Below, piece by piece: positions 1 through 27,699 of a DNA stretch of 64,000 nucleotides (positions within the stretch are counted from its first letter, which is position 1; each line of letters starts with the position of its first letter). Below the pieces are notes generated by a model. The model made no database searches, was not told where the DNA came from, and saw only the letters and a program-made list of their open reading frames with translations. The stretch is from a virus (Duplodnaviria > Caudoviricetes). Both the position numbers and the translations under genes were made by a program. The DNA is taken from IMG/VR virus record IMGVR_UViG_3300020046_005360; one strand, 5' to 3'.

Positions 1-105
1 ATCTGGAACAAATTGAATTGAATGGAAGAATTGTACTATTTCTCCATTTGATGCCATTACATTTGGGGTAGTAGCTAATAATTTAGCTATTTCTATACGT
101 TTCAT
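1..105 (-). CDS. hypothetical protein, N-terminal part (runs off window)
   Basis: ATG at 103-105 overlaps the TAA of 105..419 (TAATG); open frame MKRIEIAKLLATTPNV... to the window edge. Confidence 0.6.
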   Translation of the reverse strand, partial: MKRIEIAKLLATTPNVMASNGEIVQFFHSIQFVPD

Positions 106-419
106 TAATAAATTTCGTATTGTGGTTTTAGTTTTATTCTATCTTTTGGAATAAATTTATTAGCAGCTATACAATTGTCCAACCATTGTCTTTCTTCCCA
201 AGTTACTAAATGTACTGCTCTTTCACCCCCTATATATGGTGTTGTAGCGCTTCTATATTCCCATTTACCATCCATATTACTAATACATGAACCTTTAATT
301 CTTTCCAAATCTATGTCTCCACGACCATCCTTATCTGGTCCTTCATTTTTGGTTATTAAAAAGGTGTCACCTTTCATAATTTTGTAATATTCTCCAACTA
401 TTAAGTCTGTTGATTTCAT
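105..419 (-). CDS. small hypothetical protein, C-terminal PxYEIY family
   Basis: 104 aa ORF ending KPQYEIY*. Confidence 0.8.
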   Translation of the reverse strand: MKSTDLIVGEYYKIMKGDTFLITKNEGPDKDGRGDIDLERIKGSCISNMDGKWEYRSATTPYIGGERAVHLVTWEERQWLDNCIAANKFIPKDRIKLKPQYEIY

Positions 420-421
420 AA

Positions 422-673
422 CTAGTATATTTCGTATTGAGGTTCGTCAAAATAAAATTCCAAATCACATTCTAAAAATCCACTTTGGGGTCTTTTCATA
501 CTACTCCCCAATACTATTTCATATTGCTCTATTCTAACAATATAAGCAAATTTTTGGGATTTTATAGAATTCGTTATTAATGAACAACGTTCTAATGATG
601 TACCTACTGATTTAGTAGTAGGTATTTTGACTTTATCCCCAACTTTAAATTTTTTCATCTTCTTTCCACTCAA
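422..673 (-). CDS. small hypothetical protein (SH3/KOW-like N-terminus), C-terminal PxYEIY family
   Basis: KFKVGDKVKI N-terminus; ends EPQYEIY*; true start probably the second Met. Confidence 0.75.
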   Translation of the reverse strand: MSGKKMKKFKVGDKVKIPTTKSVGTSLERCSLITNSIKSQKFAYIVRIEQYEIVLGSSMKRPQSGFLECDLEFYFDEPQYEIY

Positions 674-1390
674 TTAATGGGCAATTATTTTTATAAATAT
701 TATAAATCATATCAGATACGATTTGTATTCCGTGCCAAATTTTACTAGCAACATTTTTAATGAAATTCCAAATAATGTCAAGAAAGTTAAAGAATATACT
801 ATTGATAAATAAGTATTTCCATATGTGATAAAAACCAACAACAAATACAACTATATTACCAACATCTAATAATAATTTACCCAATAATTTCCAATCAATT
901 GGTCTCCATTCTATACTCCATATAAGAAAACCAACAACTCCTAATAATGAAGTAAATAAAACACCTATAAGTACAAGATCCCAATCAACATCTAGTTTCT
1001 TCTTATATATTGGTTTATGTTGTTTACATAAATCATATATTTTATGCCATATATCATCAGATATAAATCCTGAGTATATCCTCCACTCATTAGAATTATA
1101 TAATATGTATGCTTCTTCTGGTGTTAAATCTCGATTACAATATTCGAGAAATTTGGATTTACGTTTTTGGTATTTGTCTTCTTTACGTTGATAATTCCAT
1201 TTATAATATTTTGATGATAAATTACCAAATAATTTTAAAATTACCATAAATGGTAAAAGTATAAAAGTAATTATTAGTGACCAAAAATAAGGACACATAT
1301 TTTTATACTTTTTGGTAGGATCTACGTCATATAACCACTTATATAACTTTACATGCCAAGCATCTTTTGAGAACGAATACAAGTTTTCAT
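645..1390 (-). CDS. hypothetical multi-pass membrane protein
   Basis: Three hydrophobic segments; ORF track starts at TTG 1382, and an ATG at 1388-1390 is out of frame by one base (possible A-run deletion). Confidence 0.7.
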
Positions 1391-1420
1391 AATCTTAATT
1401 GTTTTTTATTAATTTATTTT

Positions 1421-1453
1421 GTAAATATACGAATTCCATTCTTAAAATCCTAA
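1421..1453 (-). promoter_or_regulatory. early/middle promoter (TTCGTATATTTAC)
   Basis: Intergenic gtaaatatacgaa on the + strand; the motif recurs upstream of many genes. Confidence 0.7.
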
Positions 1454-1656
1454 AGGACTTCAAGAATTTTTGTTTCTTTAATACTTACAACCTTAAAATC
1501 TAGGTTTGTTCCTTCATCAACAAATTTTTTAACTGTAATGGTTTCGGCATCTAAACAACTAATTGCGGAAACAATATATTGTTCATTTTGTTTTTTTAAC
1601 TTACCCTTTTCGTCTTCAGATTTTACTTGGACATTTACTTGGAAATACTTGTTCAT
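1450..1656 (-). CDS. DUF4494-like protein
   Basis: YFQVNVQVKSEDEKGKLKKQNEQYIVSAISCLDAE pattern resembles the Bacteroidota DUF4494 repeat. Confidence 0.6.
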   Translation of the reverse strand: MNKYFQVNVQVKSEDEKGKLKKQNEQYIVSAISCLDAETITVKKFVDEGTNLDFKVVSIKETKILEVL

Positions 1657-1673
1657 TTTTATTTAGTTTTAAA

Positions 1674-2041
1674 TTATTTTGTGTATTTTTCTACGATTGC
1701 TCTAATTGTATTATCTACGTTTCCTTTAATATTGGAAACGATAAGTTCTCTTTCGATAGTTTTAACATCAATAACATGTTGGGGTTTATCCACATCATCT
1801 ACATAAGTCCTGCCGTTATAGTGTTGACTTAAAGTTAATTTTGGGTGGACCAATTTATATTCTTCTTCTAATGAAAGTTCGAATGCTTCCCTTTTTGTTC
1901 AATCTCTTTATTTACTTCTTTTTTTAGAAGACATAATTCTTGATATTCTTTTTGTTCAGGAGAATCTTTTTTACTCTCTTTAATTTGATCAACGATAGTT
2001 TCTACTACCGCATCCAATTCATATTTGGATAATTTTGCCAT
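1674..2041 (-). pseudogene. hypothetical protein interrupted by a -1 frameshift (A-run at 1892-1896)
   Basis: MAKLSKYELDAVVETIVDQIKES...EIEQK continues as REAFELSLEEEY...IVEKYTK* if one A is added; may be a sequencing error. Confidence 0.6.
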
Positions 2042-2063
2042 AATCTTTGTTTATATTTAATTG

Positions 2064-2318
2064 TTAATAAATTTCGTAATTAGGTTCTACGTTTTGTTTT
2101 AATATTTCTGTTTGGAATTCTTGGAATGTTAAAACGTTTCCTTTAGGTCTTGTATAATATACATCCCCAGGTTTAATTCCATAAATATAATAATATGATA
2201 TCGCGGGGTCAGTTTGGTACATTTTGTTATTACATACATTACCCCAATTTTCATCAAACCACTTACTAATAATAAATGCTTCTTCTTTATTTCCAGGTTT
2301 AATACACCACATTTCCAT
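2064..2318 (-). CDS. small hypothetical protein, PxYEIY family
   Basis: MEMWCIK...LTFQEFQTEIL...EPNYEIY*; paralog of 2321..2611. Confidence 0.8.
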   Translation of the reverse strand: MEMWCIKPGNKEEAFIISKWFDENWGNVCNNKMYQTDPAISYYYIYGIKPGDVYYTRPKGNVLTFQEFQTEILKQNVEPNYEIY

Positions 2319-2320
2319 AA

Positions 2321-2611
2321 TTAGTATATTTCGTAAGTTGGGTTAATTTCTTTTCCTAGAACCAATTCTTTGAATTCATCAAATGTTAATTCTCTATAGT
2401 CAGAATGATCAAAATCCTCTCTATTTCTACTTATAGAATTAGTATTACTAAATCCATGTCCTATATTTTTATATCCAGGTTTTAAAATATTCTCACTATA
2501 ACAGTATCCACTGTAGGATGAATAAATACTATTATTAGGATCTAATTTATTCATAAATTCGTTTACTACATCACCATTTTCATATGTTCTTTTTATACAC
2601 CACTTTTCCAT
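2321..2611 (-). CDS. small hypothetical protein, PxYEIY family
   Basis: MEKWCIK...LTFDEFKELVL...NPTYEIY*. Confidence 0.8.
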   Translation of the reverse strand: MEKWCIKRTYENGDVVNEFMNKLDPNNSIYSSYSGYCYSENILKPGYKNIGHGFSNTNSISRNREDFDHSDYRELTFDEFKELVLGKEINPTYEIY

Positions 2612-2629
2612 AACTTTATTATTTATATT

Positions 2630-2660
2630 GTAAATATACGAAATTTTATTTGAAAATCAA
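2630..2660 (-). promoter_or_regulatory. early/middle promoter
   Basis: Minus strand TTG...TTCGTATATTTAC upstream of 2611. Confidence 0.7.
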
Positions 2661-2661
2661 A

Positions 2662-2988
2662 CTATTCTTCATCTTTAATAGAAAATACTATCTTTTCGAA
2701 ATTGCGTACTCTAGCAGCTATTTCGTATTTCTGGTTTTTAACAAAGTAATTCTTCATCTCCATGAAAGCATCTCCCCACTCCTTTTCATATATAGATAAA
2801 AATTCAACATCATCATCTGATTCTGTAATTTCTATCCTATATATGTCTACAGTTTGGACTTCTTGTTTAGATTTCCATGATTTCTCTAATTTATCTAAAG
2901 TATATAAATGGACTTCTTCTTCACTTTCTTCATAAAAGTCGAACATATCATCATAGTCTCGAAACTTTAATAGTTTTAACTTTCCCAT
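2662..2988 (-). CDS. hypothetical protein
   Basis: 108 aa ORF; C-terminal YFVKNQKYEIAARVR is UVR-like and similar to 5577..5879. Confidence 0.7.
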   Translation of the reverse strand: MGKLKLLKFRDYDDMFDFYEESEEEVHLYTLDKLEKSWKSKQEVQTVDIYRIEITESDDDVEFLSIYEKEWGDAFMEMKNYFVKNQKYEIAARVRNFEKIVFSIKDEE

Positions 2989-3349
2989 TCTTTAATATTT
3001 TTGTTGTTGTAGCATCTTCTGGAAAACGACCATTGTGATATTCAGTTAGATCTAATTCAATTTGTTCAATTCTTTGCTTATCTTCCTTCGTTACACGTTT
3101 TTTACGTTCACTTCCTTTCGTAATATATTTTTTATTTAAAGTATCTAATTCTTTTAATAACTTTTCTGAGAAAGCATATTGAGGATCATCTATTTCTACG
3201 CTTAATGGAGTATGTTTAGATATATTTAAATCCCATTCCCATTTATATCTTGTTCCGTCTTTGTCTTGGAAATGCTGAGTGTATTTAAGTATTGGTGTTA
3301 TATTCTCAACTGGGCGACCTTTATTACTACTCTTACTAATAGATTTCAT
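2951..3349 (-). CDS. hypothetical protein
   Basis: 132 aa ORF in the operon. Confidence 0.7.
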   Translation of the reverse strand: MKSISKSSNKGRPVENITPILKYTQHFQDKDGTRYKWEWDLNISKHTPLSVEIDDPQYAFSEKLLKELDTLNKKYITKGSERKKRVTKEDKQRIEQIELDLTEYHNGRFPEDATTTKILKNGKVKTIKVSRL

Positions 3350-3632
3350 AATTTGGTTCGTAATTCTGTTTAGTTACATCGAAAGGTTTACCTAATTCAT
3401 CGTATTTAGCAATTTCTTGAGGAGTTGCGTAACGCCAATCTTTTAAAAATTTGGATTTATCAAAAGACATGACTTCATGTCCATTCGTATTAGTTCCAGA
3501 CATATCAATTACTGGGTATATACCATAATTATCTATTCTTTGTTTAAAACAATAGTTTGTCCTAGCACAATTATAACCATCAAATTCATCTTTTAATTTC
3601 AATGTAACTATATAATCGTCTTTTTTAAACAT
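3336..3632 (-). CDS. small hypothetical protein, PxYEIY family
   Basis: Contains WRYATPQEI; ends EPNYEIY*. Confidence 0.8.
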   Translation of the reverse strand: MFKKDDYIVTLKLKDEFDGYNCARTNYCFKQRIDNYGIYPVIDMSGTNTNGHEVMSFDKSKFLKDWRYATPQEIAKYDELGKPFDVTKQNYEPNYEIY

Positions 3633-3641
3633 AATTTTTAT

Positions 3642-3866
3642 TTAATAAATTTCGTAATTAGGTTCATAATTTGGTATTTCTTCTGGTAAAGCCCACCTAA
3701 ATGAATTTTGATGTAAACTAAACTCGTCACTTATTCCTTCATTATGTAATCCTTTGGAAGAAATTATAGCTCTATCTCCTCTCCAACTTATAACTTCACA
3801 AACACGACCAATATTTTCTGGATATGTTCCCCAACCTCCTTTTGTTATTACTATATATTCTTCCAT
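3642..3866 (-). CDS. small hypothetical protein, PxYEIY family
   Basis: Contains FRWALPEEI; ends EPNYEIY*. Confidence 0.8.
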   Translation of the reverse strand: MEEYIVITKGGWGTYPENIGRVCEVISWRGDRAIISSKGLHNEGISDEFSLHQNSFRWALPEEIPNYEPNYEIY

Positions 3867-3868
3867 AA

Positions 3869-4102
3869 CTAGTATATTTCGTAATTAGGTTCTAAATAAC
3901 CCCATTTAGTTAATAATATATTCGCTTTATCTCCACAATATTTACCTTCCAATGTTTGGTATAATCCGTATTCTAAACTATAATTAATAATATATACTAA
4001 TTCATCATAGTCAGATGTTTTAGGTATATTATCCATAGTATAATTGGAACCGTAGTGTTTATCGTAATTTCCCATATTTATCTCCTTTTTATATAATCCC
4101 AT
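3869..4102 (-). CDS. small hypothetical protein, PxYEIY family
   Basis: Ends EPNYEIY*. Confidence 0.75.
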   Translation of the reverse strand: MGLYKKEINMGNYDKHYGSNYTMDNIPKTSDYDELVYIINYSLEYGLYQTLEGKYCGDKANILLTKWGYLEPNYEIY

Positions 4103-4589
4103 CTATGTCCAAATGTTATGAACCCACTCAATTTATCTTCGGGTTTCCATCTAAATATTTCTTGGTCATATCTTTTATCTAATGTTGTTCTTAAACCTAT
4201 AAAATAATGTTCACCTAACCTTTGTTGGATACCAGCCTCTAAACCATAGTTTATTCTAAAAGCACCATCACGATCTACTTTAGCCATTCGAGCTCCAGCA
4301 TATATTCTAGTTTTTCAAATAATCCTAAAGTAGTATTCAATCCAATAGCACCATGAATATCGAAATATCCTCCAGTTAATGCTCCAAAACTTTCAAATCC
4401 CATTTTAGCATAAACATATCCTACATATTCAATCTCTCCCACTATATCTAATCCACCTTCTTTATATGATGCAAAGGGATCAATATGGGTACTTATAGTA
4501 AAATATTCTTTGTCCGAAAAATGTATAAAACTTTGTTTCTGTGCGAATAAACTATTACATAGTAATAGTAATAGGATTAATTTTTTCAT
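4078..4589 (-). CDS. putative outer-membrane beta-barrel protein, split by a -1 frameshift at 4311-4315
   Basis: Signal peptide MKKLILLLLLCNSLFAQ; alternating G/aromatic beta-strands; ORFs 4275..4589 and 4078..4287 join as FEKTRIYAGARMAKVD if one A is added. Confidence 0.6.
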
Positions 4590-5059
4590 AACTGTTTTTG
4601 TTTTACAATTTCAATTAATTTCTTTAAGCATTCAAGTTCTGCTTCTTCTTCATTAGAATTATCATACCCATCCCATTCAATTTTATCTCTTAAACCTCCT
4701 CTATACTGGTCAAAAGAATAAATTCTGTAACCAAATTCAAGTATTTCAAAATGGTCTTCTTCTGTTGAATAGAGTCTTTGAAAAGGTACACAAGGTTCTA
4801 TAACTAAATCATACTTCTCTCTAAACCATCTAAATACTTGTGAGAAAGTTGGTTTTGAAATATAATATTCATCTTTTAAAAATTTTCTAACTTCTTCACC
4901 TTCAGAGTTTTTATAACCACTATAACTTGATTGTCCACAAAACGTAATATAATCGTTTATTTTACTATTGTAAGTGAAAGTTGCTCCGAAACAAGGTTCA
5001 TCAAACCCTAATTCTTTAAGTGCTAATGCTTGTTCGTAAGGTATAAACTCATTTTCCAT
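4586..5059 (-). CDS. hypothetical protein, ALALKELGFD family
   Basis: Paralog of 27700..28068 and 25878..26237 (shared N- and C-terminal motifs). Confidence 0.8.
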   Translation of the reverse strand: MENEFIPYEQALALKELGFDEPCFGATFTYNSKINDYITFCGQSSYSGYKNSEGEEVRKFLKDEYYISKPTFSQVFRWFREKYDLVIEPCVPFQRLYSTEEDHFEILEFGYRIYSFDQYRGGLRDKIEWDGYDNSNEEEAELECLKKLIEIVKQKQL

Positions 5060-5087
5060 AACTAATCATTTTATTACTTTATATATC

Positions 5088-5100
5088 GTAAATATACGAA
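5088..5100 (-). promoter_or_regulatory. early/middle promoter core
   Basis: TTCGTATATTTAC upstream of 5059. Confidence 0.65.
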
Positions 5101-5130
5101 ATAATATATAATATTTTTATTCCCTAACAG

Positions 5131-5154
5131 AAAAAGGTCTCTTTTCAGAGACCT
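5131..5154 (-). terminator. intrinsic terminator
   Basis: AGGTCTC/GAGACCT stem followed by a U-run on the minus strand. Confidence 0.7.
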
Positions 5155-5179
5155 AATGAATTAATAAAAACAATTATAA

Positions 5180-5584
5180 TTAATCAAATGTACCAGGGTA
5201 TAATTTCTGAATAACGTTATATAAATCATCTGGAGTTCTGATATAAATTTCATCTCCATTATCGTTGGTTAAGAATTGTTCATTACCAGATTCATCTAAT
5301 CTTTCATAAAAAAAGAATGCAATTAACTGATATATATCGGGTCCATAACTTAGTAGTAGTATTTCATCTATTATAGAGTAGAAGGGGTCTTCATATGAAG
5401 ATAAATCTATATTAAATTGTGATTGAAGCATTATTGATTTAAGAAGTGCTTCATCATATTTTTTAATAATAGATATGAATTGAATCTTCTTTTGATTTTT
5501 TGCGTTACGTTTTTGTCTTCGCACGATGGTTTCACCACCTAATAGGCTTGTAAAACCATATTGAATGTCTTGTTTATCAATCAT
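5180..5584 (-). CDS. hypothetical protein
   Basis: 134 aa ORF. Confidence 0.75.
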   Translation of the reverse strand: MIDKQDIQYGFTSLLGGETIVRRQKRNAKNQKKIQFISIIKKYDEALLKSIMLQSQFNIDLSSYEDPFYSIIDEILLLSYGPDIYQLIAFFFYERLDESGNEQFLTNDNGDEIYIRTPDDLYNVIQKLYPGTFD

Positions 5585-5879
5585 TACTTTCTAATTTAAT
5601 TAATAAATCTCTAATAGTTGAACATCTTGGATAATCTTCTTTCAACAAGTAGTATTTTTCCAATGTTTCTAATGTAACTTTATATGTTTTTTGAGGGATT
5701 ATAACTTGGTATTCCTGCACATAACAAAAAACACATTCTTTCTTGTTTTTATTTACAGCTACTTCTATATTTGGTAAAAGTTTATCATAAATAACTTGTT
5801 GAACAGAATCCATCGCTAATCCCTTCACTATTACGTCAAGATTCTCACTTGCAAAGGTAACTGTGGGGATGTTTGCCAT
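5577..5879 (-). CDS. hypothetical protein
   Basis: 100 aa ORF with UVR-like C-terminal EDYPRCSTIRD. Confidence 0.7.
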   Translation of the reverse strand: MANIPTVTFASENLDVIVKGLAMDSVQQVIYDKLLPNIEVAVNKNKKECVFCYVQEYQVIIPQKTYKVTLETLEKYYLLKEDYPRCSTIRDLLIKLESND

Positions 5880-5882
5880 ATT

Positions 5883-6236
5883 TTAACGACTTAAGATTGC
5901 TTTAATAAACGGGAAAATACTTCCCACAGGAATATTCATTTTTACAGAAGTATTACCTTCTTTACCTTCTTCTGCATTAAGTTCAAGTTTATACTTTGCG
6001 AATTTAGGTCCTAATGAAGTCATAAGACTGTTTTGAAGTGTTTTAATTTCTTCATCAGATAGATTATAAATCATATTTCCTTCTGGATTGACAGGAACTA
6101 ATTCAAGATTAATTCCATTTTTATCAACATCTAAATTGACTTGGAATGTTTCTCCATTTAGGTTGACTTTATATTGTAAATCTCCTCCATCTTCTTCTAA
6201 CATTAATTGTCTTAATGATGTGTTTATATGCGCCAT
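5883..6236 (-). CDS. hypothetical protein, possibly virion-associated (N-terminal LRQLMLE motif)
   Basis: Preceded by the late-type motif ATATTTATA at 6250-6258. Confidence 0.7.
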   Translation of the reverse strand: MAHINTSLRQLMLEEDGGDLQYKVNLNGETFQVNLDVDKNGINLELVPVNPEGNMIYNLSDEEIKTLQNSLMTSLGPKFAKYKLELNAEEGKEGNTSVKMNIPVGSIFPFIKAILSR

Positions 6237-6257
6237 ATTATTATTTTTGTATAAATA

Positions 6258-6875
6258 TTAATTATAATAGTCTAATCTATTTCTTTTTATTTCTCTATTT
6301 ACTTTACTACACAAAGGTTGTAGGTTAGAGAAATGGTTCAATTTATAAATATCTTCTTCTGTATTTATAGAACTTAAGGGAATTATATGATCTATATCCC
6401 AAGTTTTATTAAATTCGAATATCCCATCTTTAGGATAACCTCTATTATTCCAAGTCATCCAAGATTCGAATTTAGATTCTAAATGTAATTTAAATTCTTC
6501 AAATGAACAACATAATATATCTTCAGTACATTTTGATTTAATACAAGATCCATTTAAATAATTTTTGAAACTACTAAGTATTGATGATCTCATATTTTGT
6601 TTTAATTTATATAAATGATCATTTTCCCTTTTATTTTTTTGATAATCATTATGATGTCCCGGATTAAGTTTATTCCATTTTATATTAGTTTTTTTAAAAT
6701 AATCCCTATTTATATTATAATATTCATTATTATATATTTTAGTAATATCCTTTTTACTATCATTATGTTTCTTTTTACAATTTCTGCATTGAAAATTAAA
6801 TCCGTCCTTTTTGGCTCGATTAATACAAAAATCACTAAATTCTTTTAACTCACCACACTTACTACATTTCTTCAT
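6258..6875 (-). CDS. HNH-family homing endonuclease with N-terminal Zn finger
   Basis: CxxC...CxxC; FESWMTWNN...WDIDHIIP...LNHFSNLQPLC. Confidence 0.85.
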   Translation of the reverse strand: MKKCSKCGELKEFSDFCINRAKKDGFNFQCRNCKKKHNDSKKDITKIYNNEYYNINRDYFKKTNIKWNKLNPGHHNDYQKNKRENDHLYKLKQNMRSSILSSFKNYLNGSCIKSKCTEDILCCSFEEFKLHLESKFESWMTWNNRGYPKDGIFEFNKTWDIDHIIPLSSINTEEDIYKLNHFSNLQPLCSKVNREIKRNRLDYYN

Positions 6876-6975
6876 ATCAAATAAAAAGGAGAAATTAAAG
6901 AAAACTACCTCGTCCGTAGTGAATCCTTAAAATCTCCTATATAATTTCTTTATTGGTAGGACGAGTACCGTTTGA
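6876..6975 (-). ncRNA. structured 5' leader RNA with kissing loops (copy 1)
   Basis: GGUA[CUCGUCC]UACC and ACUAC[GGACGAG]GUAGU hairpins with complementary loops; outer AGGAGA/UCUCCU stem; same architecture at 33682-33780. Confidence 0.7.
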
Positions 6976-7002
6976 TATAAATATATAAGGAGAATGGAAA
7001 CA

Positions 7003-8121
7003 TTAACTTACTTTAATTAAATCATTAATACTATTATTAATATTATTAACTTTTATTTTAAAAATATCGATTTCATATTCTTCACCTTTATTAACGTTAT
7101 TTAGGATGTTTTGGAGATTCTTAATAATTTCGAAATTATTATTATCCAAACGCAAACCATCGAATTTAATTACAATATCTTCACTTACTTCATCATCAAT
7201 ATGTTTTAATTTATATTTTATGGGAAATATTGTTGTTGGTTGTTCTTTTTCATAATAACTAGTTGTATCTATGTTAGTATATATCCCAAGACACCATGGT
7301 TCTAATACTTCTAATAATTGTTCTGTACAATTTTCAACAATAAACCCAATATCAAATTTGTTTTGTGAATTCATTGAACCCCATTTTCTCAAATAAGTTC
7401 TATTTGAATTACGTTCAATTTGTTGAGTTTTTGTTTTAGCTTCTTCACTAAATCTACTAGTTTTAGATACAAAATGATAAACAATTGAATCTAATGATGT
7501 AAAACAAGTTAATCCTTTTAATTTAAGACGTTTAATTAAATCATCATCTTCCGAAAAATACGGATTGAATATATTATCAAATCCTCCAATATCCAACAAG
7601 ATTTGACGAGAAAGACACATAAAAAATGAAACTCCATCACTAGTACCGTTTTGGTATTTAATTCTTTCTTGACTAGCGAAAGTATAGAAATCTTGACTAA
7701 ATGTCTCTATATCTGTACCAAAATCTTCTATAATTTTACCTGGTCTTTCGTGGTCTACGAATATTGGTGGTTCTATTGTAGTATAACTTATTACTCTGTC
7801 TTTATGAGTGTATTTTTCTAAATTTTCTAAAAAATTAGGAGCAACAACCATATCATTATGAGCAAATACTACGAAATCTTTAGTAGCAATTTCTATTGCT
7901 TTATTATATGTGTCCGAGAATGTTTTCCCTTCCTCCTCAAAAAATGTAATAGTATTAGGGTCATTTAGATTAAATAACCAAGAATTAGTTCCATCAGTAC
8001 TTCCATAAGAAACAAAAACCAACTCTTGAGTTGGATAGATTTGTCTAAACGTATTATAGAAATGTTGTGAGTATTCTAAGTTATTTTTAAGTCCGACTAG
8101 TGTGCTTATATTATTCCTCAT
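7003..8121 (-). CDS. glycosyltransferase family 2
   Basis: GSTDGT, FAHNDMVV, GGFDNIFNPYFSEDDDL, VYHFVSKTSR motifs. Confidence 0.85.
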   Translation of the reverse strand: MRNNISTLVGLKNNLEYSQHFYNTFRQIYPTQELVFVSYGSTDGTNSWLFNLNDPNTITFFEEEGKTFSDTYNKAIEIATKDFVVFAHNDMVVAPNFLENLEKYTHKDRVISYTTIEPPIFVDHERPGKIIEDFGTDIETFSQDFYTFASQERIKYQNGTSDGVSFFMCLSRQILLDIGGFDNIFNPYFSEDDDLIKRLKLKGLTCFTSLDSIVYHFVSKTSRFSEEAKTKTQQIERNSNRTYLRKWGSMNSQNKFDIGFIVENCTEQLLEVLEPWCLGIYTNIDTTSYYEKEQPTTIFPIKYKLKHIDDEVSEDIVIKFDGLRLDNNNFEIIKNLQNILNNVNKGEEYEIDIFKIKVNNINNSINDLIKVS

Positions 8122-8365
8122 ATAATTTATAACTATTTCCTAACATTAATAATAAATTAGCGCAATCCGCTATATGTTCTTTAATTAATTTATATTCATT
8201 ATCGTACATAGCATTAACTAATTTATCTTCATGATATTTTAATTCTTTCAATATTTCTCTAGGATCGATAAAGTCTTCCCAATCCCCTTTATGAGAATTG
8301 TCAATTAATTCTTTTTGCATCTCTAGTGCAAAATTATATACTTTATCTTGCATAATTAAGACCAA
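8111..8365 (-). CDS. MazG-like/all-alpha NTP pyrophosphohydrolase-like protein
   Basis: NSHKGDW...EHIADCANLLLML. Confidence 0.5.
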   Translation of the reverse strand: MVLIMQDKVYNFALEMQKELIDNSHKGDWEDFIDPREILKELKYHEDKLVNAMYDNEYKLIKEHIADCANLLLMLGNSYKLYEE

Positions 8366-8550
8366 ATTTTGGATTTTCTATTTTTAGGAACAGCGGGAGG
8401 AGGTGGGAGTGCCTTTTTTCTAGGAATAGTACAAAAATTTTTTATATTTGTTTTTGTACTACCTTCAGTCAAATTTTTATATTCAATTTTACTACATTCA
8501 CACTCACATCTTCTTTCACCACATCTACTACAAGGATCATTCCAACTCAT
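8356..8550 (-). CDS. small Cys/Pro-rich hypothetical protein
   Basis: CSRCGERRCECEC and PPPP; overlaps both neighbours. Confidence 0.55.
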   Translation of the reverse strand: MSWNDPCSRCGERRCECECSKIEYKNLTEGSTKTNIKNFCTIPRKKALPPPPAVPKNRKSKIWS

Positions 8551-9434
8551 AATGTTAATACTTTATTATATAATTCGTAATGTTGTTTACATACTATACT
8601 TCGTTTAAATCTATCCATTTTTGGTGGATATTTTAACGCAATGTCTAGTATCCTACCTTGAGGATCTACTTTATAAATGTAACTTGGTATACCACACATC
8701 CAACCTTCTATCGTAGTACGCCCACCAATACCTACTGTAAAATCAGCGTGTTTAACGTATTTTTCTGTATCATAACACGGATCTACGACTGTTATTAGTT
8801 TGTTGTTAAAATCGTGTTTACTATTTGATACTATGACGAGTTCGGTACCGTTTTGAATACATTCTGACACAACATGTTCAATCATTGGTCTACGTAATGA
8901 ATCATTAATTTCACCAATTAATGTTCCTGTTGGGTTGTAATAAATTATTTTATCAAAATCTAAATCCGCATCCTTATTAAATCTAGTTTCATCAATAGGG
9001 TTATATATCATTGATATATCCTTTGTTTTTATTCTATATTGATTTTTAAGGCAACGATATATATCAGGCTGTACTGATATGTAATGTTTTATTGATGGAT
9101 GTTTAATAGCCTCTTCACTTCTTAGTGCGGAATGGATTATAGATATCTTTGGTATATTTGGATAATAATGACATACTGCAGATGTTGGCCAAGGTTGCGA
9201 AACAATAATTAAATCGAAATTTTCTCTAATATGACAAACTTCATCCATTAATTTTACTTTTACTCCCAACTTTATTACATCTTTCCATAAATGGTAATCT
9301 AAATTAGGTTCTGTGGCTGTAGCTACAGTAATATCAAGATCTTTGTATTCAGTTAATCCTATTATTAGTTCGTGGTGATAGAGTTCACTACCACCGAGAC
9401 CATTCATGTTTTGGAAACTAATTAATATCTTCAT
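8547..9434 (-). CDS. glycosyltransferase (GT-B/GT4-like)
   Basis: MKILI...GLGGSE, IYNPIDETRF, GRTTIEGWMCG. Confidence 0.8.
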   Translation of the reverse strand: MKILISFQNMNGLGGSELYHHELIIGLTEYKDLDITVATATEPNLDYHLWKDVIKLGVKVKLMDEVCHIRENFDLIIVSQPWPTSAVCHYYPNIPKISIIHSALRSEEAIKHPSIKHYISVQPDIYRCLKNQYRIKTKDISMIYNPIDETRFNKDADLDFDKIIYYNPTGTLIGEINDSLRRPMIEHVVSECIQNGTELVIVSNSKHDFNNKLITVVDPCYDTEKYVKHADFTVGIGGRTTIEGWMCGIPSYIYKVDPQGRILDIALKYPPKMDRFKRSIVCKQHYELYNKVLTL

Positions 9435-10080
9435 AATTTATTAGTATTTTATACCTTCCATAATGGTCTTGTAATTTTATATCAGTAATTCCCGCACGTT
9501 GTAATCCAATTTTATTTTCTTTCAAGAATTTTATTGGGTTACCCACATATATACATCCTGGTTCTACTTTGGTTGATTTTGTAACAATACCCCCCATTCC
9601 GATCATAGCATAAGAACCTATTACTGAGTATTGATGGCAGATTGAACCTAATGCCATATTAGCTCCTTCCATAACATGAGAATGTCCACCTAACAAAACG
9701 TTGCAACTTATAGTTACGTTGTTTTCTATAATTACGTCATGCCCACAATGGCTACCTCGTAACATAATATTATCATTTCCTATTACAGTATCTTGTTCTG
9801 TACCAGCATTTATTGTAGTGAATTCTCTAATAGTATTATTATTACCAATTACGGTTCCAAATGATGTACCACTAATGAAATATGATTTATGTTCTGGTAG
9901 AGAATTTACTATACAATGTGATTCAAATCTATTACCATCTCCTATAATAGTATTATCTCTAATAATACAATAAGGTCCTATATAATTATATTTACCAATT
10001 TCGACATAATCCCCAATTATTGCTGTGGGATGTATGTAATTACCATATATAGGTTCGTTGTATTTTTTTATAGATTCCAT
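9418..10080 (-). CDS. LpxA-like hexapeptide-repeat acyltransferase
   Basis: IHPTAII, IGPYCII, IREFTTINAGT, HCGHD, HQYSVIG left-handed beta-helix motifs. Confidence 0.85.
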   Translation of the reverse strand: MESIKKYNEPIYGNYIHPTAIIGDYVEIGKYNYIGPYCIIRDNTIIGDGNRFESHCIVNSLPEHKSYFISGTSFGTVIGNNNTIREFTTINAGTEQDTVIGNDNIMLRGSHCGHDVIIENNVTISCNVLLGGHSHVMEGANMALGSICHQYSVIGSYAMIGMGGIVTKSTKVEPGCIYVGNPIKFLKENKIGLQRAGITDIKLQDHYGRYKILINYEDIN

Positions 10081-10083
10081 AAT

Positions 10084-10728
10084 TTATTTATTATAATTTC
10101 CAGTTAAATAACTTTCATTCTGTTTTTGTTGTTTTTCGAAGCTCTTAATGTGTAGTAAATCATATTCACCTCCAATAGGTAATTCTGTTCTTACTTTATA
10201 ATTTATTATAGTTTCATGTACTTGTCCTCCCCACTCTATTCCGGGGCGATTTATCATGATACGATACTGGAAATCAGGATAATTTATACGCTCTTTAATA
10301 TCTTGACGCCACCCCATTTGTTTTACATATTCAGGTGTTATTCCTGTTACAAAATTAGCTCTAGGAACTCCAATTACATCGACTTCCGGATTTAATTCAA
10401 TTATTAATGGAAGGTTTTCAATTAAAATTGGATTTGGTATTTCATCTGCATCTAAGAAAAATAAATAGTCTTTACACAATGGATGACTTCTTAATTTATT
10501 TTTCCATTCTCCAAAATTCCCTCCAAACTTATCGTCTATCAGTTTGATATGTCGAGCTTTATGGAGATCTGTCAGAAATTCAAAGAATTCACTATATTTA
10601 GGACATTTATTAGTATCTACTAAAACGATTATATTATCTTCGTCACGTTTATTAATACGTAGAGTTTCATACAATTTTTTAAATTCAACTATTTCATTAG
10701 CAACAGTTATGGCGTATGTTATTCTCAT
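10084..10728 (-). CDS. glycosyltransferase family 2
   Basis: FFLDADE DxD motif, YPDFQYRI, VHE. Confidence 0.85.
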   Translation of the reverse strand: MRITYAITVANEIVEFKKLYETLRINKRDEDNIIVLVDTNKCPKYSEFFEFLTDLHKARHIKLIDDKFGGNFGEWKNKLRSHPLCKDYLFFLDADEIPNPILIENLPLIIELNPEVDVIGVPRANFVTGITPEYVKQMGWRQDIKERINYPDFQYRIMINRPGIEWGGQVHETIINYKVRTELPIGGEYDLLHIKSFEKQQKQNESYLTGNYNK

Positions 10729-10949
10729 AATGTATCTCCTTGTTTTAAATCTTTGACATCAAATGTAGGTACTTTAATATAAAATGTACTATCTTTATTT
10801 TTCACCCATAAAAACTCACTTCCTGTATCGGAATCTGGATTCTCTAATAATATAATTCCCTTACCTCTATATTGTTCGATAGGAATAATTTTCCTTTCAG
10901 TACATGAAATCAACAATATAAAACTTAATATTAATACGACTTTTTTCAT
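10725..10949 (-). CDS. putative lipoprotein
   Basis: MKKVVLILSFILLIS-C lipobox. Confidence 0.65.
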   Translation of the reverse strand: MKKVVLILSFILLISCTERKIIPIEQYRGKGIILLENPDSDTGSEFLWVKNKDSTFYIKVPTFDVKDLKQGDTL

Positions 10950-10951
10950 AA

Positions 10952-11182
10952 TTAATAATCTATATGAATGAATATTGTTTCACCTTCTAATTCGGGATAT
11001 GTGTCTATTATCCAATTGGTCATATCAAAGTCATCATCAAATTCATCTTGTTGATCTCTTGATGTTACTTCATATTCAATATAACTATCACATGATGCTT
11101 CGTTCACAGAATAATTAGCTTCTGTTATCTCTTCTGGGATTTCACAATATGATACTACTTTTCTTGTTATTTCTTTATACAT
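10952..11182 (-). CDS. hypothetical protein
   Basis: 76 aa acidic ORF. Confidence 0.65.
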   Translation of the reverse strand: MYKEITRKVVSYCEIPEEITEANYSVNEASCDSYIEYEVTSRDQQDEFDDDFDMTNWIIDTYPELEGETIFIHIDY

Positions 11183-11184
11183 AA

Positions 11185-11439
11185 TTATTTTTTAAATTCA
11201 ACAGATCCATTTTTACTTAATTCTTGTGAGTATTCAAATATAATTTGATAAGCTCTATATAAATCCATTTCACAGCTTCTATAATCAAATCTTTTATTAA
11301 ACATATCTAAAACTACGATTCGTAAAAATTCAGGTAATCTTATATCAGTTTTGAATAGTAGTTCATATGCTTTTCTTCTACCAGTAAAATCACCTATATC
11401 TAATATAGCTTCTTCTAATTCTTGTTTAGTATAGATCAT
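11185..11439 (-). CDS. hypothetical protein
   Basis: 84 aa ORF. Confidence 0.65.
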   Translation of the reverse strand: MIYTKQELEEAILDIGDFTGRRKAYELLFKTDIRLPEFLRIVVLDMFNKRFDYRSCEMDLYRAYQIIFEYSQELSKNGSVEFKK

Positions 11440-11679
11440 TTAACGCATATCATTTAATAGTTTATTTAATATAATTAAAGCTTGGCGTTTTTCTGTGAAA
11501 GTATTTAAATCACCAACGAAATAATCTAATGCTTCAAAACTAGCATACTCACAAATATAATCATACTCTTCATCGGATATTCTCCAAGTAAACTTCATCA
11601 CATCATCAAAGGCATCCGTAATACCACCATGACCTTTATAAACAATGTCTGTTCTATTTTTACGAGATAATCTAGTCAT
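11440..11679 (-). CDS. hypothetical protein
   Basis: 79 aa ORF downstream of the promoter motif at 11697-11709. Confidence 0.65.
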   Translation of the reverse strand: MTRLSRKNRTDIVYKGHGGITDAFDDVMKFTWRISDEEYDYICEYASFEALDYFVGDLNTFTEKRQALIILNKLLNDMR

Positions 11680-11696
11680 AATACTTAATTTATTTC

Positions 11697-11745
11697 GTAA
11701 ATATACGAATATCTTATTAGTAAAAAAATTCCCTTTCGGGAATCT
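11697..11745 (-). promoter_or_regulatory. terminator hairpin followed by early/middle promoter
   Basis: ATTCCC-GAAA-GGGAAT hairpin with U-run, then TTCGTATATTTAC. Confidence 0.65.
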
Positions 11746-11746
11746 T

Positions 11747-12211
11747 TTATTCTAATAAACCCACTGAGGAGAGAGCATCTATAAATCCGTTTTGATTGAA
11801 TTTTTGTAGAGTGGTATTATCATTTTTAAATTTGATATATTCACCTGTTTTTGGATGTTTGAATCTTTCTTTTTCTTCTTCTGAAACAGGTATGGATTGC
11901 ATTGAAGCCCATTCCCAATCTGCAGCGCAAGTTCCTAAAATGAACACAATGCCTTTACCTTCTACATTTACTACTTGTGGGTACCAACATCTTCCTTCTT
12001 CATCCACAATTACAATATCTCGATAAAGTTCTGGTAGTGTTTCCTCATATTTTTCGATATCGAAACCTTCAGATTCCTTCATAAGATCTGTTGTCTCAAA
12101 TCCAGTTATTAACGATTTATATGAATTGTAATGTTCATTAATTGGTGTAATATAACAACTTTCAGGTAATCCGCTTAAGGGACAAGTCCCAATATAATCT
12201 TTTTCTATCAT
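11747..12211 (-). CDS. hypothetical protein
   Basis: 154 aa ORF coupled to the glycosyltransferase operon. Confidence 0.75.
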   Translation of the reverse strand: MIEKDYIGTCPLSGLPESCYITPINEHYNSYKSLITGFETTDLMKESEGFDIEKYEETLPELYRDIVIVDEEGRCWYPQVVNVEGKGIVFILGTCAADWEWASMQSIPVSEEEKERFKHPKTGEYIKFKNDNTTLQKFNQNGFIDALSSVGLLE

Positions 12212-13498
12212 TTATTTAACTAATTTAAGTTGTGGAAGTTTAAGTGAGTATGGAAGTATAATATTAGCGTCCAATACTTCTTGTATTTTTTCTTTAATTT
12301 TCGAAAAGCTAAAATTTTCTTTACAATAATAACTTAATCGTTTACCATTGTCTTTATATTTAGAATATTCTTCATGGTAGTCTCTCATTATTGCACCAGC
12401 ATGACCTAAATCCACACTATACCATTTCGAACCTTCAATTAACATATCTTTAACTTGAGCTGATGGGTGGATTGGTGTAAGTGTTCCTGGTAATAGAGTT
12501 GTAAATTTTGAATGGCAAAAATCTAATTGTCCTCCCCAACCTGACACAATTAATGGCTTTTTGGATTGAGTAAATTCTAGGAGTGGTTTACCCCAACCTT
12601 CACCTTTTGTAGTAGAAATCATTGCTTTTACCTTAGAATGATTATATAATTCATTCATTTCTTGGTCTGTAATTTCTCCATGAAATAAGTAAATATTAGG
12701 TAAATTAGTAGAGTTTACTGTTTTGCGAATATTTTCTATTCTTTTCAATATTTCTTCTCTATGAGGAATAGAACACGAACCTATTGAAGTTTTCAGAATA
12801 AGAGCCGGTTTATTTTTCTTGTTTTTAAATGTCTCGAAAAATACTTTAACTAATCCTGTTATATTCTTCCTATCTTCAGAAAAATTACCATTTAACCAAG
12901 TTCCTACATTTAAGAAACAGAAATCTTCTTTAATTAAATCTAATTCTTTTTTAATTTCGCTTTCACCATCTAAAAATGGTAAATATTTATATATTTCTTC
13001 AATAAATCCCTCTCCAATGATTTCTATAGGTTTTTCTACTTTAATTATACCTAGTGATTGTTGAGTATTATTATCCTTTTTCTCAAATTGAGAATTCATG
13101 AATGTATCTTTAGAATGTTTAGACGGAACAATATTTAAATCCATCTTATTAATTCCTTCAATCCATTGTGGTGCGCAAACGTCCGTTTCTATTCCAGCAG
13201 TCCATCCAATATTATAACCGCCAATAGCTTGGAATTCGGTTGGTATTGTATGCCAAATCATGATATCAGGTTTATATGTTAGGTTTTCAGATAAGATATA
13301 TTCACTTAAAAATCCCCAATCTTCTAAGTTATCTTTAATGAAACCTGAGGGTAAATTACCCCACCCACATGATATAATTTTTATATCGAATTTATCTTTA
13401 TATAACTCTATTAATGACTTTGCTATACCACGCCCACAAGCGGGATATCCTCCATATACATCAATACTAGAGTATAATACTAATTTTGGTTTATTCAT
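12212..13498 (-). CDS. glycosyltransferase family 4 (GT-B)
   Basis: TKGEGWGKPLLE ExxxxxxxE motif; RKNI. Confidence 0.85.
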   Translation of the reverse strand: MNKPKLVLYSSIDVYGGYPACGRGIAKSLIELYKDKFDIKIISCGWGNLPSGFIKDNLEDWGFLSEYILSENLTYKPDIMIWHTIPTEFQAIGGYNIGWTAGIETDVCAPQWIEGINKMDLNIVPSKHSKDTFMNSQFEKKDNNTQQSLGIIKVEKPIEIIGEGFIEEIYKYLPFLDGESEIKKELDLIKEDFCFLNVGTWLNGNFSEDRKNITGLVKVFFETFKNKKNKPALILKTSIGSCSIPHREEILKRIENIRKTVNSTNLPNIYLFHGEITDQEMNELYNHSKVKAMISTTKGEGWGKPLLEFTQSKKPLIVSGWGGQLDFCHSKFTTLLPGTLTPIHPSAQVKDMLIEGSKWYSVDLGHAGAIMRDYHEEYSKYKDNGKRLSYYCKENFSFSKIKEKIQEVLDANIILPYSLKLPQLKLVK

Positions 13499-13500
13499 TT

Positions 13501-14925: not shown

Positions 14926-15577
14926 AATTTATTTTATTAATTTTTATATAACGATTTGTATATGAGCATAGTGGTTGAAAATTAGTATAATGATTTAACC
15001 GGATTATATCCTCTTCTGTTTTGGCACTTGATATTGGGATTATATGGTCTATATCCCAACCATAGTTTAATTCACCATTGTATAATCCTTGGTTTTCCCA
15101 AGTCATCCAAGGTTCGAATTTCGATTCAAGATATTGTTTAAATTCTTCAAAGGTACAACCTAATATTTGATAACTTCTAGGATTTTTTGTAAATCCATTA
15201 TTTCTAAAACTCGAGGATATTAAAGAAATAATTAGTCTTTTAGTTCTATATATAGTATCTTCTTGATATTTAATCCTTAATGATTGATTAATTTTATTTC
15301 TATTTTCAGATTTATATATTTTATTTTTAACCTTCCATAAATCTTTATTATTTTCGTAATTTTCTTTATCCTTTTGTTTATAATATTCAGGATTTAATAA
15401 TTGATGTTCTTTAACATTATTTCGAACTCTTTCTTTATTCTCAGGTTTAGATAAATAATTACTAAAAGCTTTACTACAACAGGACCTACAGCGAGAATTT
15501 AAACCATCCTTCTTACTTTTATCATTAGAATAATTATCTAATGATTTAGGTTCATTACATTTTTTACACGTTTTCAT
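14903..15577 (-). CDS. HNH-family homing endonuclease
   Basis: CKKC...CRSC; WDIDHIIPISSA...LNHYTNFQPLC. Confidence 0.85.
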   Translation of the reverse strand: MKTCKKCNEPKSLDNYSNDKSKKDGLNSRCRSCCSKAFSNYLSKPENKERVRNNVKEHQLLNPEYYKQKDKENYENNKDLWKVKNKIYKSENRNKINQSLRIKYQEDTIYRTKRLIISLISSSFRNNGFTKNPRSYQILGCTFEEFKQYLESKFEPWMTWENQGLYNGELNYGWDIDHIIPISSAKTEEDIIRLNHYTNFQPLCSYTNRYIKINKINYERRLHT

Positions 15578-15838: not shown

Positions 15839-16816
15839 CTAAAAGATTTCGAATGGGGAAGGTTGTTTTTTAAATGGAGTACCTCGATTACAATGTTGGT
15901 CTAAATCTTTATATGGACAGAACCCACAATTAAATTGTGATATTTCTTTTTTAAATTTAGTTTGTCTTATTACACCATGTTCATCAAAAGTTGAATTAGC
16001 AAAGTTTTCTAACATAGAATATGCTTTAACTATTTTACCTTTACCCGAAGCAGGAATAAATGATTGGAATCGTTTTTCAGGAAAATCACTATCTTCCTTA
16101 ATTTTACGTTTTAATATTAAAAACTTAACCTCAATATTTTCTATAGGAAAGTTGAATTGTTCAGAGAATAATTTTTTATATAATAATAATTGAGCTAGTT
16201 TACCTTCATCTTTTTTAGCCTTATCATACCAAGCTTTAGTTGATGTTTTTAAATCTATTATTTCAATAGTATTGGTTGGTTCATGATATAAAACTAAATC
16301 TAAGAAACCATTATAAAATACATTCGGTAATATATTATGAGATATAGGTACTTCACATCCAACTAGATGCCATCCTTTTTTAGAGAAGTAACCACCTACT
16401 TTATTTTTAAAATATTTTAAAATAGCAATACCATCTTCACAAAATTCATCCAATTCTTCAGGAGTTGAGAAATGTTTCTTGCCGTTTTTTTCATATTCAT
16501 CTAAATACAACGATTTAAGTTTTTGACGGAAAGTCATTATAAGATCTAGACGATCTGCAGCAGCTTTACTTTGTTCGTAATATATAGTAAGATATGATTG
16601 AATTAACTCATGACACGCAACCCCAAATATTAAATTAATGGATGGATCAGGAATTTTGATTTTATCACGATAACGAAGACCCCATCTATACGAACATTGT
16701 CCGAATATAGTCATTTGTGAATGACTTATTATACTTTGGCAAGACCAATCTATTGGAGGTGGTTTATACGCTTTTACCTGTTTAATTATATCAGGAATTT
16801 TTTGAGTTTTAGCCAT
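15839..16816 (-). CDS. PD-(D/E)XK nuclease (PDDEXK_1/Cas4-like exonuclease)
   Basis: ISHSQ...C, FGVACHE, GFLDLV...IIDLKTS, QLLLY, CGFCPY...C. Confidence 0.85.
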   Translation of the reverse strand: MAKTQKIPDIIKQVKAYKPPPIDWSCQSIISHSQMTIFGQCSYRWGLRYRDKIKIPDPSINLIFGVACHELIQSYLTIYYEQSKAAADRLDLIMTFRQKLKSLYLDEYEKNGKKHFSTPEELDEFCEDGIAILKYFKNKVGGYFSKKGWHLVGCEVPISHNILPNVFYNGFLDLVLYHEPTNTIEIIDLKTSTKAWYDKAKKDEGKLAQLLLYKKLFSEQFNFPIENIEVKFLILKRKIKEDSDFPEKRFQSFIPASGKGKIVKAYSMLENFANSTFDEHGVIRQTKFKKEISQFNCGFCPYKDLDQHCNRGTPFKKQPSPFEIF

Positions 16817-19865: not shown

Positions 19866-20115
19866 AATCTAATTTATCTTTTTTAATATCACGATTTACT
19901 TTACTACATAATGGTTGAAGGTTTGTGTAATGATTTAATCTTATTACATCTTCAATACTTTTAGCTTCACTAATAGGTATTTTATGATCAATATCCCAAT
20001 CAAAATTTAATTCGCCATTATATTTACCTTTATTATCCCAAGTCATCCAAGGTTCAAATTTATTCTCTAAATATACGAAGAATTCTTCAAAAGTACAACC
20101 TAATATTTCATAAGT
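19831..20115 (-). pseudogene. N-terminally truncated HNH homing endonuclease
   Basis: Open frame RTYEILGCTFEEF...FEPWMTWDN...WDIDHKIP...LNHYTNLQPLC; the Zn-finger half is missing. Confidence 0.75.
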
Positions 20116-26581: not shown

Positions 26582-26754
26582 AAATATTTATCCATTTTTG
26601 AATTATTTGGGATTAAATACCAAAAATCTTCCATACTATCCCTTTTAGTTATCACCCAATATAAAGGGTATAAACATAATGAAATTAAAAATAATATAAT
26701 AAATATTGGTAATACGACCCCTCTATAAAATACTCCTAATATAAATTTTTTCAT
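26578..26754 (-). CDS. small membrane protein (not in ORF track)
   Basis: 58 aa MKKFILGVFYRGVVLPIFIILFLISLCLY..., ATGA-coupled on both sides. Confidence 0.5.
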   Translation of the reverse strand: MKKFILGVFYRGVVLPIFIILFLISLCLYPLYWVITKRDSMEDFWYLIPNNSKMDKYL

Positions 26755-27697: not shown

Positions 27698-27699
27698 AA

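Follow-up and report, generated by a model that had tools for sequence, protein, structure and literature searches.

A shared C-terminal Tyr-Glu-Ile-Tyr tail on unrelated small proteins of a T4-like phage: a putative docking motif for a common receptor

Why should a run of small phage genes, coding for proteins that for the most part bear no resemblance to one another, finish with the same few residues? The question is raised by positions 105 to 4102 of a stretch of 64,000 nucleotides from a virus of the Caudoviricetes (IMG/VR record IMGVR_UViG_3300020046_005360), which at its full length is called here the window, and which represents the module for replication and nucleotide metabolism of a large phage (28% G+C). 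An earlier note, made from the sequence alone, had described there seven open reading frames (ORFs) whose products end in a heptapeptide of the form xPxYEIY, and had read this ending as a portable signal that recruits a swappable set of effectors to one hub. The answer proposed here, to which we would give a probability of about 0.6 from the comparison of sequences, is that the tail would be a docking motif through which the tagged proteins bind a common receptor; the interpretation of the earlier note is partly supported.

Two relatives serve for most of the comparisons: L030, a strain-level relative found by exact-protein look-up, of 84–93% nucleotide identity and mosaic, which extends 10 kb beyond the left edge of the window; and G005, a complete genome of 180.5 kb with terminal repeats, syntenic with the window at a median protein identity of 56%. 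Among cultured phages the closest relative is Flavobacterium phage vB_FspM_immuto (immuto from here on), with a GroEL 52% identical, and a megablast of window positions 1–8000 against phage records gave no match. Thirteen genes occupy the minus strand between 105 and 4102, and in seven of these xPxYEIY immediately precedes a TAA or TAG stop, in agreement with the earlier description in coordinates and endings alike:

105..419, minus strand: tailed protein of 104 amino acids (aa), ending KPQYEIY, with the motif (A)TxEExxWLxxCI before the linker; an identical copy exists in L030.
422..658, minus strand: tailed protein of 78 aa from the probable ATG at 658 (the open frame runs to a TTG at 673), ending EPQYEIY, with an N-terminal KFKVGD motif; gene calling in L030 gives the same 78 aa.
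2064..2318, minus strand: tailed protein of 84 aa, ending EPNYEIY, paralog of 2321–2611 (MExWCIK ... LTFxEFxxxIL).
2321..2611, minus strand: tailed protein of 96 aa, ending NPTYEIY, of the same family as 2064–2318, which has 26 members.
3336..3632, minus strand: tailed protein of 98 aa, ending EPNYEIY, with a beta-rich body and a helix (DWRYATPQEI); the next gene, 2951–3349, takes its ATG from the TAT-GAA of this tail.
3642..3866, minus strand: tailed protein of 74 aa, ending EPNYEIY, a singleton family among 113 clustered proteins.
3869..4102, minus strand: tailed protein of 77 aa (68 aa from the ATG at 4075, the start called in L030), ending EPNYEIY; its ortholog in L004, 69% identical, ends EPQYEIY.

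All seven are real genes, small and accessory, of a T4-like and AT-rich phage of Flavobacteriia type, and they belong to at least five unrelated families, the pair 2064–2318 and 2321–2611 being the only detectable paralogs among them, so that the statement that their bodies are mostly unrelated stands. Translated in all six frames, the whole window yields YEIY seven times, in each case at the very end of a protein; arrays with the same ending are found in related phages. Neither Pfam nor PHROGs gave a family match for any of the seven, and an Atlas search with 2064..2318 returned unnamed viral clusters as its sole matches. An untailed protein of 68 aa (1450–1656) lies within the array region, matches only the N-terminal half of DUF4494 and is present at 60–68% identity in all the relatives. 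In two places, ORFs that are separate in the window are a single gene in L030, namely 4078–4287 and 4275–4589, overlapping or adjacent (169 aa in L030, with an N-terminus like a signal peptide), and 1674–1853 and 1868–2041 (122 aa in L030); therefore, frameshifts or sequencing errors are to be supposed in the window at those points.

Is the ending conserved as peptide, or as a stretch of DNA that happens to be translated? Scans of viral contigs with DNA patterns revealed arrays of small ORFs with the YEIY ending in several low-GC contigs, and over 22 related loci YEIY is terminal 113 times and internal once. In those 113 ends the first and second positions of the tail codons are fixed and the third is free (TAC 65 and TAT 48 for the first Tyr; GAA 108 and GAG 5; ATA 49, ATT 49 and ATC 15; TAT 86 and TAC 27 for the last), and TAA, TAG and TGA stops are all used; within the window, likewise, the variation is synonymous only (CCA/CCT, TAC/TAT, ATT/ATA/ATC, TAT/TAC), apart from the alternation of TAA and TAG. 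A generic aromatic tail pattern occurs by comparison in 3 of 320 control ORFs. The claim that selection has acted on the peptide rather than on a DNA repeat is borne out by the fixed first and second codon positions, the free third and the 113 terminal occurrences against one. Within single arrays (L005 3107–4757, L047 5759–12086) position −3 of the tail can be relaxed, YEIY standing beside YDIY, YQIY, YSIY and YDIF.

The tail is also portable. Once it is cut off, the 113 distinct tailed proteins fall into 39 jackhmmer clusters, and between the five largest families HHalign gives a probability below 1% in 8 of the 10 pairs, the maximum being 51% over 17 columns that correspond to a short common helix. 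The spacer between the last conserved element of the body and the tail varies in length within families; in one protein (L038 2973–3497) the domain has been duplicated in tandem and a single tail remains at the very end; and in the AlphaFold model of 3336–3632 (predicted local distance difference test, pLDDT, 78) the fold reaches to about residue 85 and the last block, which bears the tail, is a coil with a pLDDT of 53. A fold search with the body of this protein returned only SH3-like matches, weak and with E >1. The idea of a portable ending is upheld by these results, and the seven do not prove to be full-length homologs of one domain that includes the tail. As for its extent, 20 kb of L030 contain 12 tailed genes, 7 of them beyond the edge of the window, and G005 has 34 among about 329 genes, distributed in two clusters, with 32 of the 34 among its 195 small genes; Pfam and PHROGs gave no family match for eight larger tailed proteins of the relatives, those of G005 included.

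Outside the array, a related tail is found on an enzyme of the replication module:

15839..16816, minus strand: PD-(D/E)XK (Cas4-like) nuclease of 325 aa (PF12705, E 2.6e-16, 60.8 bits against a cut-off of 22).

The nuclease has a C-terminal extension of 10–15 residues and ends in PSPFEIF, as the earlier note had pointed out. In homologs with at least 55% identity the extension follows a Cys cluster and ends in PF-x-I-[FY], the residues before that ending being divergent; at 51–54% identity the proteins end in FTFY or SFFQ; and below about 51% they stop right after the Cys cluster, with no extension; the ortholog in immuto has none either. Because the extension is limited to the closer homologs, an ordinary enzyme has gained a related tail in just these lineages, which speaks for the portability of the tail and suggests that the putative reader has at least one enzyme of DNA processing among the proteins it recruits. 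The variable −3 residue of this ending (PF-x-I-F) resembles the relaxed −3 position of the L005 and L047 arrays.

The observation that bears most directly on a common partner comes from the loci of a second family, named here H, a family of about 150 aa (described below) that lies beside the tailed arrays. In the neighbourhoods of divergent H genes the shared tails are the following:

L044: YP[IL]YN, nine genes sharing the tail near H.
L045 and L046: FPIY, shared tail near H.
L047/L048 and L051: YEIY, shared tail near H.
L052: [YF]P[IV]F, five genes sharing the tail near H.
L053: YEIF, on the single informative neighbour of H.
L049/L050: F[LN]FNN, shared tail near H.
L073: F-x-[IV]-F, seven genes sharing the tail near H.

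When all the ORFs of 15 H loci were clustered, seven body families recurred across lineages, and the tail followed the genome and not the family. Thus, relatives of 105–419 (family 1) end in YPIYN in L044, in YPIF in L039 and in YSIY in another lineage; relatives of 3336–3632 (family 2) in L052 end in FPIF or YPVF; and a relative of 422–658 (family 7) in L046 ends in QFPIY. A reverse DNA scan of IMG/VR for E-Y-P-I-Y-N-stop gave isolated matches only, with no arrays and no H, and is uninformative. Because the tails of a phage are homogeneous throughout its genome at the amino-acid level, with synonymous variation of the codons, one common reader for all its tagged proteins may be supposed, and this homogeneity, together with the switching as a set, is the strongest argument suggesting one reader per phage. 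Of the single hub that the earlier note had imagined, the concerted switching over seven body families favors the singleness; none of the hubs it named (a phage scaffold, a host protease, a PDZ- or TPR-type receptor, a tyrosine kinase) finds support.

What could the reader be? H was found beside tailed arrays in L005, L009 and two syntenic contigs, and its copy in L030 (15383–15841) matches phrog_2574, a family without assigned function, with E 2.5e-10 over positions 19–138 of 140. A profile search collects 902 representatives at 50% identity, almost all of 145–170 aa. If loci are retrieved through H instead of through the tail, YEIY genes are again found adjoining H. A shared aromatic C-terminal tail is present in all 15 of the 17 H neighbourhoods that have at least two complete neighbouring genes, and in each of the other two a single neighbour is informative, with YEIF in L053 and no tail in L054; no other non-tailed family occurs in more than 4 of the 15 loci. 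The gene appears as a single copy, both in G005, where it lies within the larger tail cluster, and in four of the five records searched for it, the fifth being 56% complete. In the first 100 kb of immuto, with 107 small ORFs, there is neither an aromatic tail nor H (best E 0.16), so that H, the tails and the extension of the nuclease are jointly absent from that phage, as far as these 100 kb go for the first two. A search by tblastn with the H proteins of L030 and P0041 against 50,697 phage records likewise gave nothing.

The model of H (pLDDT 91) consists of long helices at residues 19–33, 59–82, 98–129 and 134–151, together with two small hairpins. No match with E <0.7 came from Foldseek against the PDB, and a sequence profile search of the PDB gave nothing below E 0.08; the wide search in VIA gave generic coiled-coil hairpins with a best Z of 7.0, which is within the noise stated for helical models, and the Atlas TM scores of at most 0.40. 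Pfam returned no match at E <0.1 except for one that is spurious, and no TPR signal. In the alignment of H three columns separate the proteins that accompany E-type tails from those that accompany P-type tails, one of them adjoining the near-invariant Tyr76 (Ala against D/H/I/Y), and the lineages are too few for this to count as evidence. Directly after H, in two divergent lineages (L044 10583–11314, L073 10558–11289), there is a gene of 243 aa whose family is unassigned.

From all this the following explanation can be proposed. The C-terminal Tyr-Glu-Ile-Tyr-COOH, usually preceded in this lineage by Glu-Pro-x, is carried by a flexible linker, whose length varies, and would serve as a short linear docking motif, in such a way that the free C-terminus of all the tagged proteins would bind one common receptor. 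The specificity of this receptor would differ between phage lineages, and the tails of all the families would consequently change together. Docking might serve to assemble the proteins on a hub, to deliver or stabilise them, or to remove them at a set time. For the part of the receptor the best candidate would be H, as a single-copy helical-hairpin protein embedded in the tailed arrays; to this identification, which is tentative, we would give somewhat less than an even chance. Somewhat less probable still is the most ambitious form of the proposal, in which a dedicated phage tag-and-reader system would address around a tenth of the proteome in many Bacteroidota-type phages to H by means of a tag of 4–5 residues, tag and receptor would be reset together, and the same 24 nucleotides (nts) would double as a recombination handle.

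Several observations weigh against these proposals. No copy of H was found in the window, the gene of L030 being located about 5 kb past its left edge, and in L026, a contig that is 56% complete, five tails were found and no H. A search of phage records by tblastn with P0016 gave as its sole match a distant, partial H-like protein of Bacillus phage vB_BcoS-136, whose neighbours lack a shared tail. H shows no recognisable peptide-binding fold, the weak VIA match leaving room for a helical groove that binds peptides. The type of tail does not cleanly track the phylogeny of H, as YEIY is spread over several of its clades, and a prediction drawn from the tree, namely that P0119 would share the YPIYN type with P0150, failed, FxIF being found beside P0119. 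The co-location of tails and H may reflect no more than a shared hyperplastic early region, given that all the loci come from related ecological and host groups. Finally, TAC is used for the first Tyr of the tail in 58% of cases, against 13% in the bodies, and this excess is a sign of some constraint at the level of DNA or translation as well.

The alternative that best survives, although an improbable one, is that the tail works as a degron or adaptor tag at the C-terminus and is read by a factor of the host, such as a protease of the Clp or Lon type or its adaptor in Bacteroidota, which would ensure the timed turnover of the tagged proteins, and that H is just another conserved early gene. 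C-degrons such as that of ssrA and ClpXP are short, hydrophobic terminal motifs on disordered linkers, and the tail is strictly terminal, short, hydrophobic and aromatic, and carried on a disordered linker by small accessory proteins that differ between strains; moreover, the types of tail could follow lineages of hosts as readily as lineages of H, whose clades they do not cleanly follow. However, a host degron leaves unexplained the joint absence of H, the tails and the tail of the nuclease in immuto, as well as the position of H as the only recurrent non-tailed gene of the arrays, and it would be odd for a degron to be kept on a nuclease of the replication module over 55–99% identity. The ssrA tag itself is added co-translationally by the tmRNA and is recognised by the adaptor SspB and by ClpXP; the tail is similar to it in being a short C-terminal tag with a hydrophobic end, which would suit a timed removal, and differs from it in being encoded in the genome on specific genes.

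Another possibility, very unlikely on balance, is that what is conserved is a junction or recombination site of the DNA at the borders of cassettes, comparable to the promoter-early stem-loop (PeSL) modules of the T4 type or to the attC sites of integrons, with the peptide as a by-product. It is here that the differences between the window and L030 have to be considered. Their flanks are 93% and 90% identical; the homology ends at window position 3858, just past the tail, stop and ATG of 3869–4102, and restarts at 3359, the first tail codon of 3336–3632. Between these points each strain holds two non-homologous tailed genes, another tailed gene taking the place of 3642–3866 in L030. Furthermore, 2321–2611 is missing from L030, 2064–2318 is reduced there to 41 aa with its tail kept, an additional NUMOD endonuclease gene is found only in L030, and an additional copy of the family of 4586–5059 only in the window. 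Junctions composed of tail and next start match one another across different genes over 24–42 nts (90–100% identity), and of 130 ends 31 have the TAT-GAA that provides the following gene with its ATG, and 72 have TAC, which abolishes that ATG.

These breaks in the tail-coding DNA, the matches between junctions, the enrichment of TAC at the first Tyr and the ATG supplied by TAT-GAA are what a DNA element would lead one to expect. On the contrary, the third positions and the stops vary while the first and second positions are fixed, and the element is always in frame and terminal; in other lineages the peptides differ and are nevertheless homogeneous at the amino-acid level; the nuclease bears a tail without being a cassette; and breakpoints at gene boundaries are also expected from selection for intact genes, the only ones that would survive. 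The suggestion that the shared 3′ end of about 24 bp promotes the shuffling of cassettes is consistent with the exchange boundaries and is not proven. In the docking proposal it would have the rank of a secondary effect, the tail-coding DNA of about 24 nts and the next start codon forming repeated micro-homologies at which cassettes are apparently exchanged between strains. The small early genes of T4-type phages have reportedly been described by Arbiol et al. in 2010 as shuffled through the repeated promoter and stem-loop cassettes of the PeSLs; the arrays resemble them in their hyperplastic small early genes, which differ between close strains, and in the short repeats at the borders of the cassettes, and are unlike them in that the border repeat, made of tail and next start, is coding and kept by selection on the peptide. 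With respect to promoters, the early/middle-type ones that were said to precede the genes find no backing, sites resembling the sigma-70 consensus not being enriched in positions 1–6500 (38 against 46.6 ± 5.7 in shuffled sequences) in a scan that covered the sigma-70 type.

It could also be thought that the tail is a motif that binds a sliding clamp of the T4 gp45 type, so that the tagged proteins ride on the clamp of the phage. The principle of a short C-terminal docking epitope on several proteins of one phage is already known from T4 and T7. In T4 and RB69, gp43, gp55 and gp33 have clamp-binding C-termini, with an epitope that is hydrophobic and acidic, interchangeable, and borne on a divergent linker of variable length (Geiduschek and Kassavetis 2010, PMC2988020; see also PMC7892883). 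The tails studied here have the same build, a short hydrophobic and acidic extreme C-terminus on a variable linker, in functionally different proteins of one phage; a gp44-like clamp loader is encoded at 18960–19865, and a nuclease of the replication module has a related tail. Nevertheless, both parts of the family-B polymerase, the FEN/RNase H, the helicase, the UvsX-like protein, the gp32-like single-stranded DNA-binding protein (SSB) and the clamp loader end without a tail, when the polymerase is the prototypical carrier in T4 and RB69; the larger tailed proteins of G005 match neither gp55 nor gp33 nor any other known family; and the Pfam scan of the window identified no clamp gene. Whereas T4 has three carriers, the complete relative has 34 and this lineage no fewer than 14, most of them orphans of 70–100 aa, a number of clients that would be unprecedented for a clamp; the tetrapeptide, unlike the T4 epitope, switches as a set between lineages, and the candidate for a hub that its position suggests is a helical protein of about 150 aa and no ring clamp. 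There is little probability left for this explanation.

A similarly slight one attaches to the tail as a signal of termination acting on the nascent peptide or the mRNA, for example a pause of the ribosome that would help re-initiation on the next, tightly packed gene in a host without Shine-Dalgarno initiation. Shine-Dalgarno sequences are rarely used in Bacteroidota, and tailed genes often stop 2–3 nts short of the following ATG or extend over it with an overlap of 14 nts; but in these arrays tailed and untailed small genes stand equally close to the gene that follows (medians of 2 and 3.5 nts, Mann-Whitney p 0.73), 6 of 30 tailed genes are followed by at least 48 nts before the next gene, and neither the differing tails of related phages nor the tail of the nuclease, with its variable −3 residue, would be expected. 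Least credible of all is that the seven are highly divergent members of one domain family with the tail as its last conserved structural element, because, although several bodies resemble small beta-rich domains with an N-terminal strand of the type (K/R)xGD and families 2 and 3 have in common the short helix R-x-A-T-x-x-E that accounts for the HHalign maximum, 8 of the 10 comparisons between families give next to no probability of homology, linkers vary in length within families, the tail is a coil of low pLDDT in the model, a related tail is found on the 325-aa nuclease, and the tail changes between genomes while the family of the body stays.

Other terminal tags help to place the proposed docking motif. 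The C-terminal tails of T7 gp2.5, T7 gp4 and the bacterial SSB are acidic, aromatic-tipped docking handles, with long acidic runs, in one or two replication proteins; the tail shares with them the terminal aromatic residue with its free carboxylate and an acidic residue nearby, and it differs from them in consisting of one Glu, two Tyr and one Ile on dozens of unrelated mini-proteins. The tail, with its single Glu, does not conform to an acidic tail of the SSB/gp2.5 type; the gp32-like SSB (50261–51061, ending DELFKD) and the DnaB-like helicase (46625–47995) are without the tail. In eukaryotes, the PTS1 signal (-SKL) is read by the TPR domain of Pex5, and the EEVD of Hsp70 and Hsp90 by TPR co-chaperones. 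As in those cases, three or four terminal residues and a free carboxylate would make a portable tag on many unrelated proteins, and to their all-helical readers would correspond here a helical candidate; in contrast to them, H has neither a TPR signal in Pfam nor a significant structural match, and no context of transport or chaperones is evident. A search of the literature for the YEIY motif in phages found no paper on it, those that contained YEIY being unrelated matches among the ones listed. Undescribed so far are a shared tail on such a scale (about 10% of the genes), its presence on orphan proteins, its concerted and lineage-specific switching, and its association with a helical family that is itself uncharacterised.

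The window has further contents. Besides the replication genes already mentioned (split family-B polymerase, gp44-like clamp loader, DnaB-like helicase, FEN/RNase H, UvsX-like and gp32-like proteins) it encodes a GroEL-like chaperonin, ThyA, a ribonucleotide reductase, 7-deazaguanine genes and five glycosyltransferases. The latter (GT2, GT4 and two GT1 among them) form, with a hexapeptide-repeat protein, a block at 7003–14925 that lies immediately upstream of the tailed array and is kept in the relatives. The polymerase is apparently split into 26751–27437 and 29079–30881 by the insertion of three ORFs (27437–29036), which include a DUF723/zinc-ribbon protein (28104–29036); in G005 it is likewise in two genes, which are adjacent. 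A protein of 186 aa with a GmrSD_N (DUF262-like) domain (18397–18957) adjoins the clamp loader. Five or six dispersed paralogs of about 205 aa with a weak HNH signal (6258–6875, 14903–15577, 24224–24970, 33049–33723, 51079–51720 and the fragment 19831–20046), 40–70% identical to two copies in contig B, resemble a homing-endonuclease family that has spread through the replication module. At 33830–35366 and in its neighbours there are a GTP cyclohydrolase I and a QueE-like radical-SAM gene, and the annotation of immuto includes QueC/D/E/F and DpdA, which suggests that the DNA of the phage carries a 7-deazaguanine modification.

Much of what is unexplained in phage genomes consists of small orphan genes, and in these phages dozens of them per genome can be recognised by an ending of four residues. 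If there is one reader, a large share of the accessory repertoire would be organised by one interaction, probably in the takeover of the host or in counter-defence, and to identify the partner would give a functional handle on hundreds of orphan families at once. If the docking proposal is true, YEIY, YPIYN, FPIF and the other tails would constitute, with their readers, natural orthogonal pairs of tag and reader, and the link to the exchange of cassettes would provide a concrete mechanism for the plasticity of the early region.

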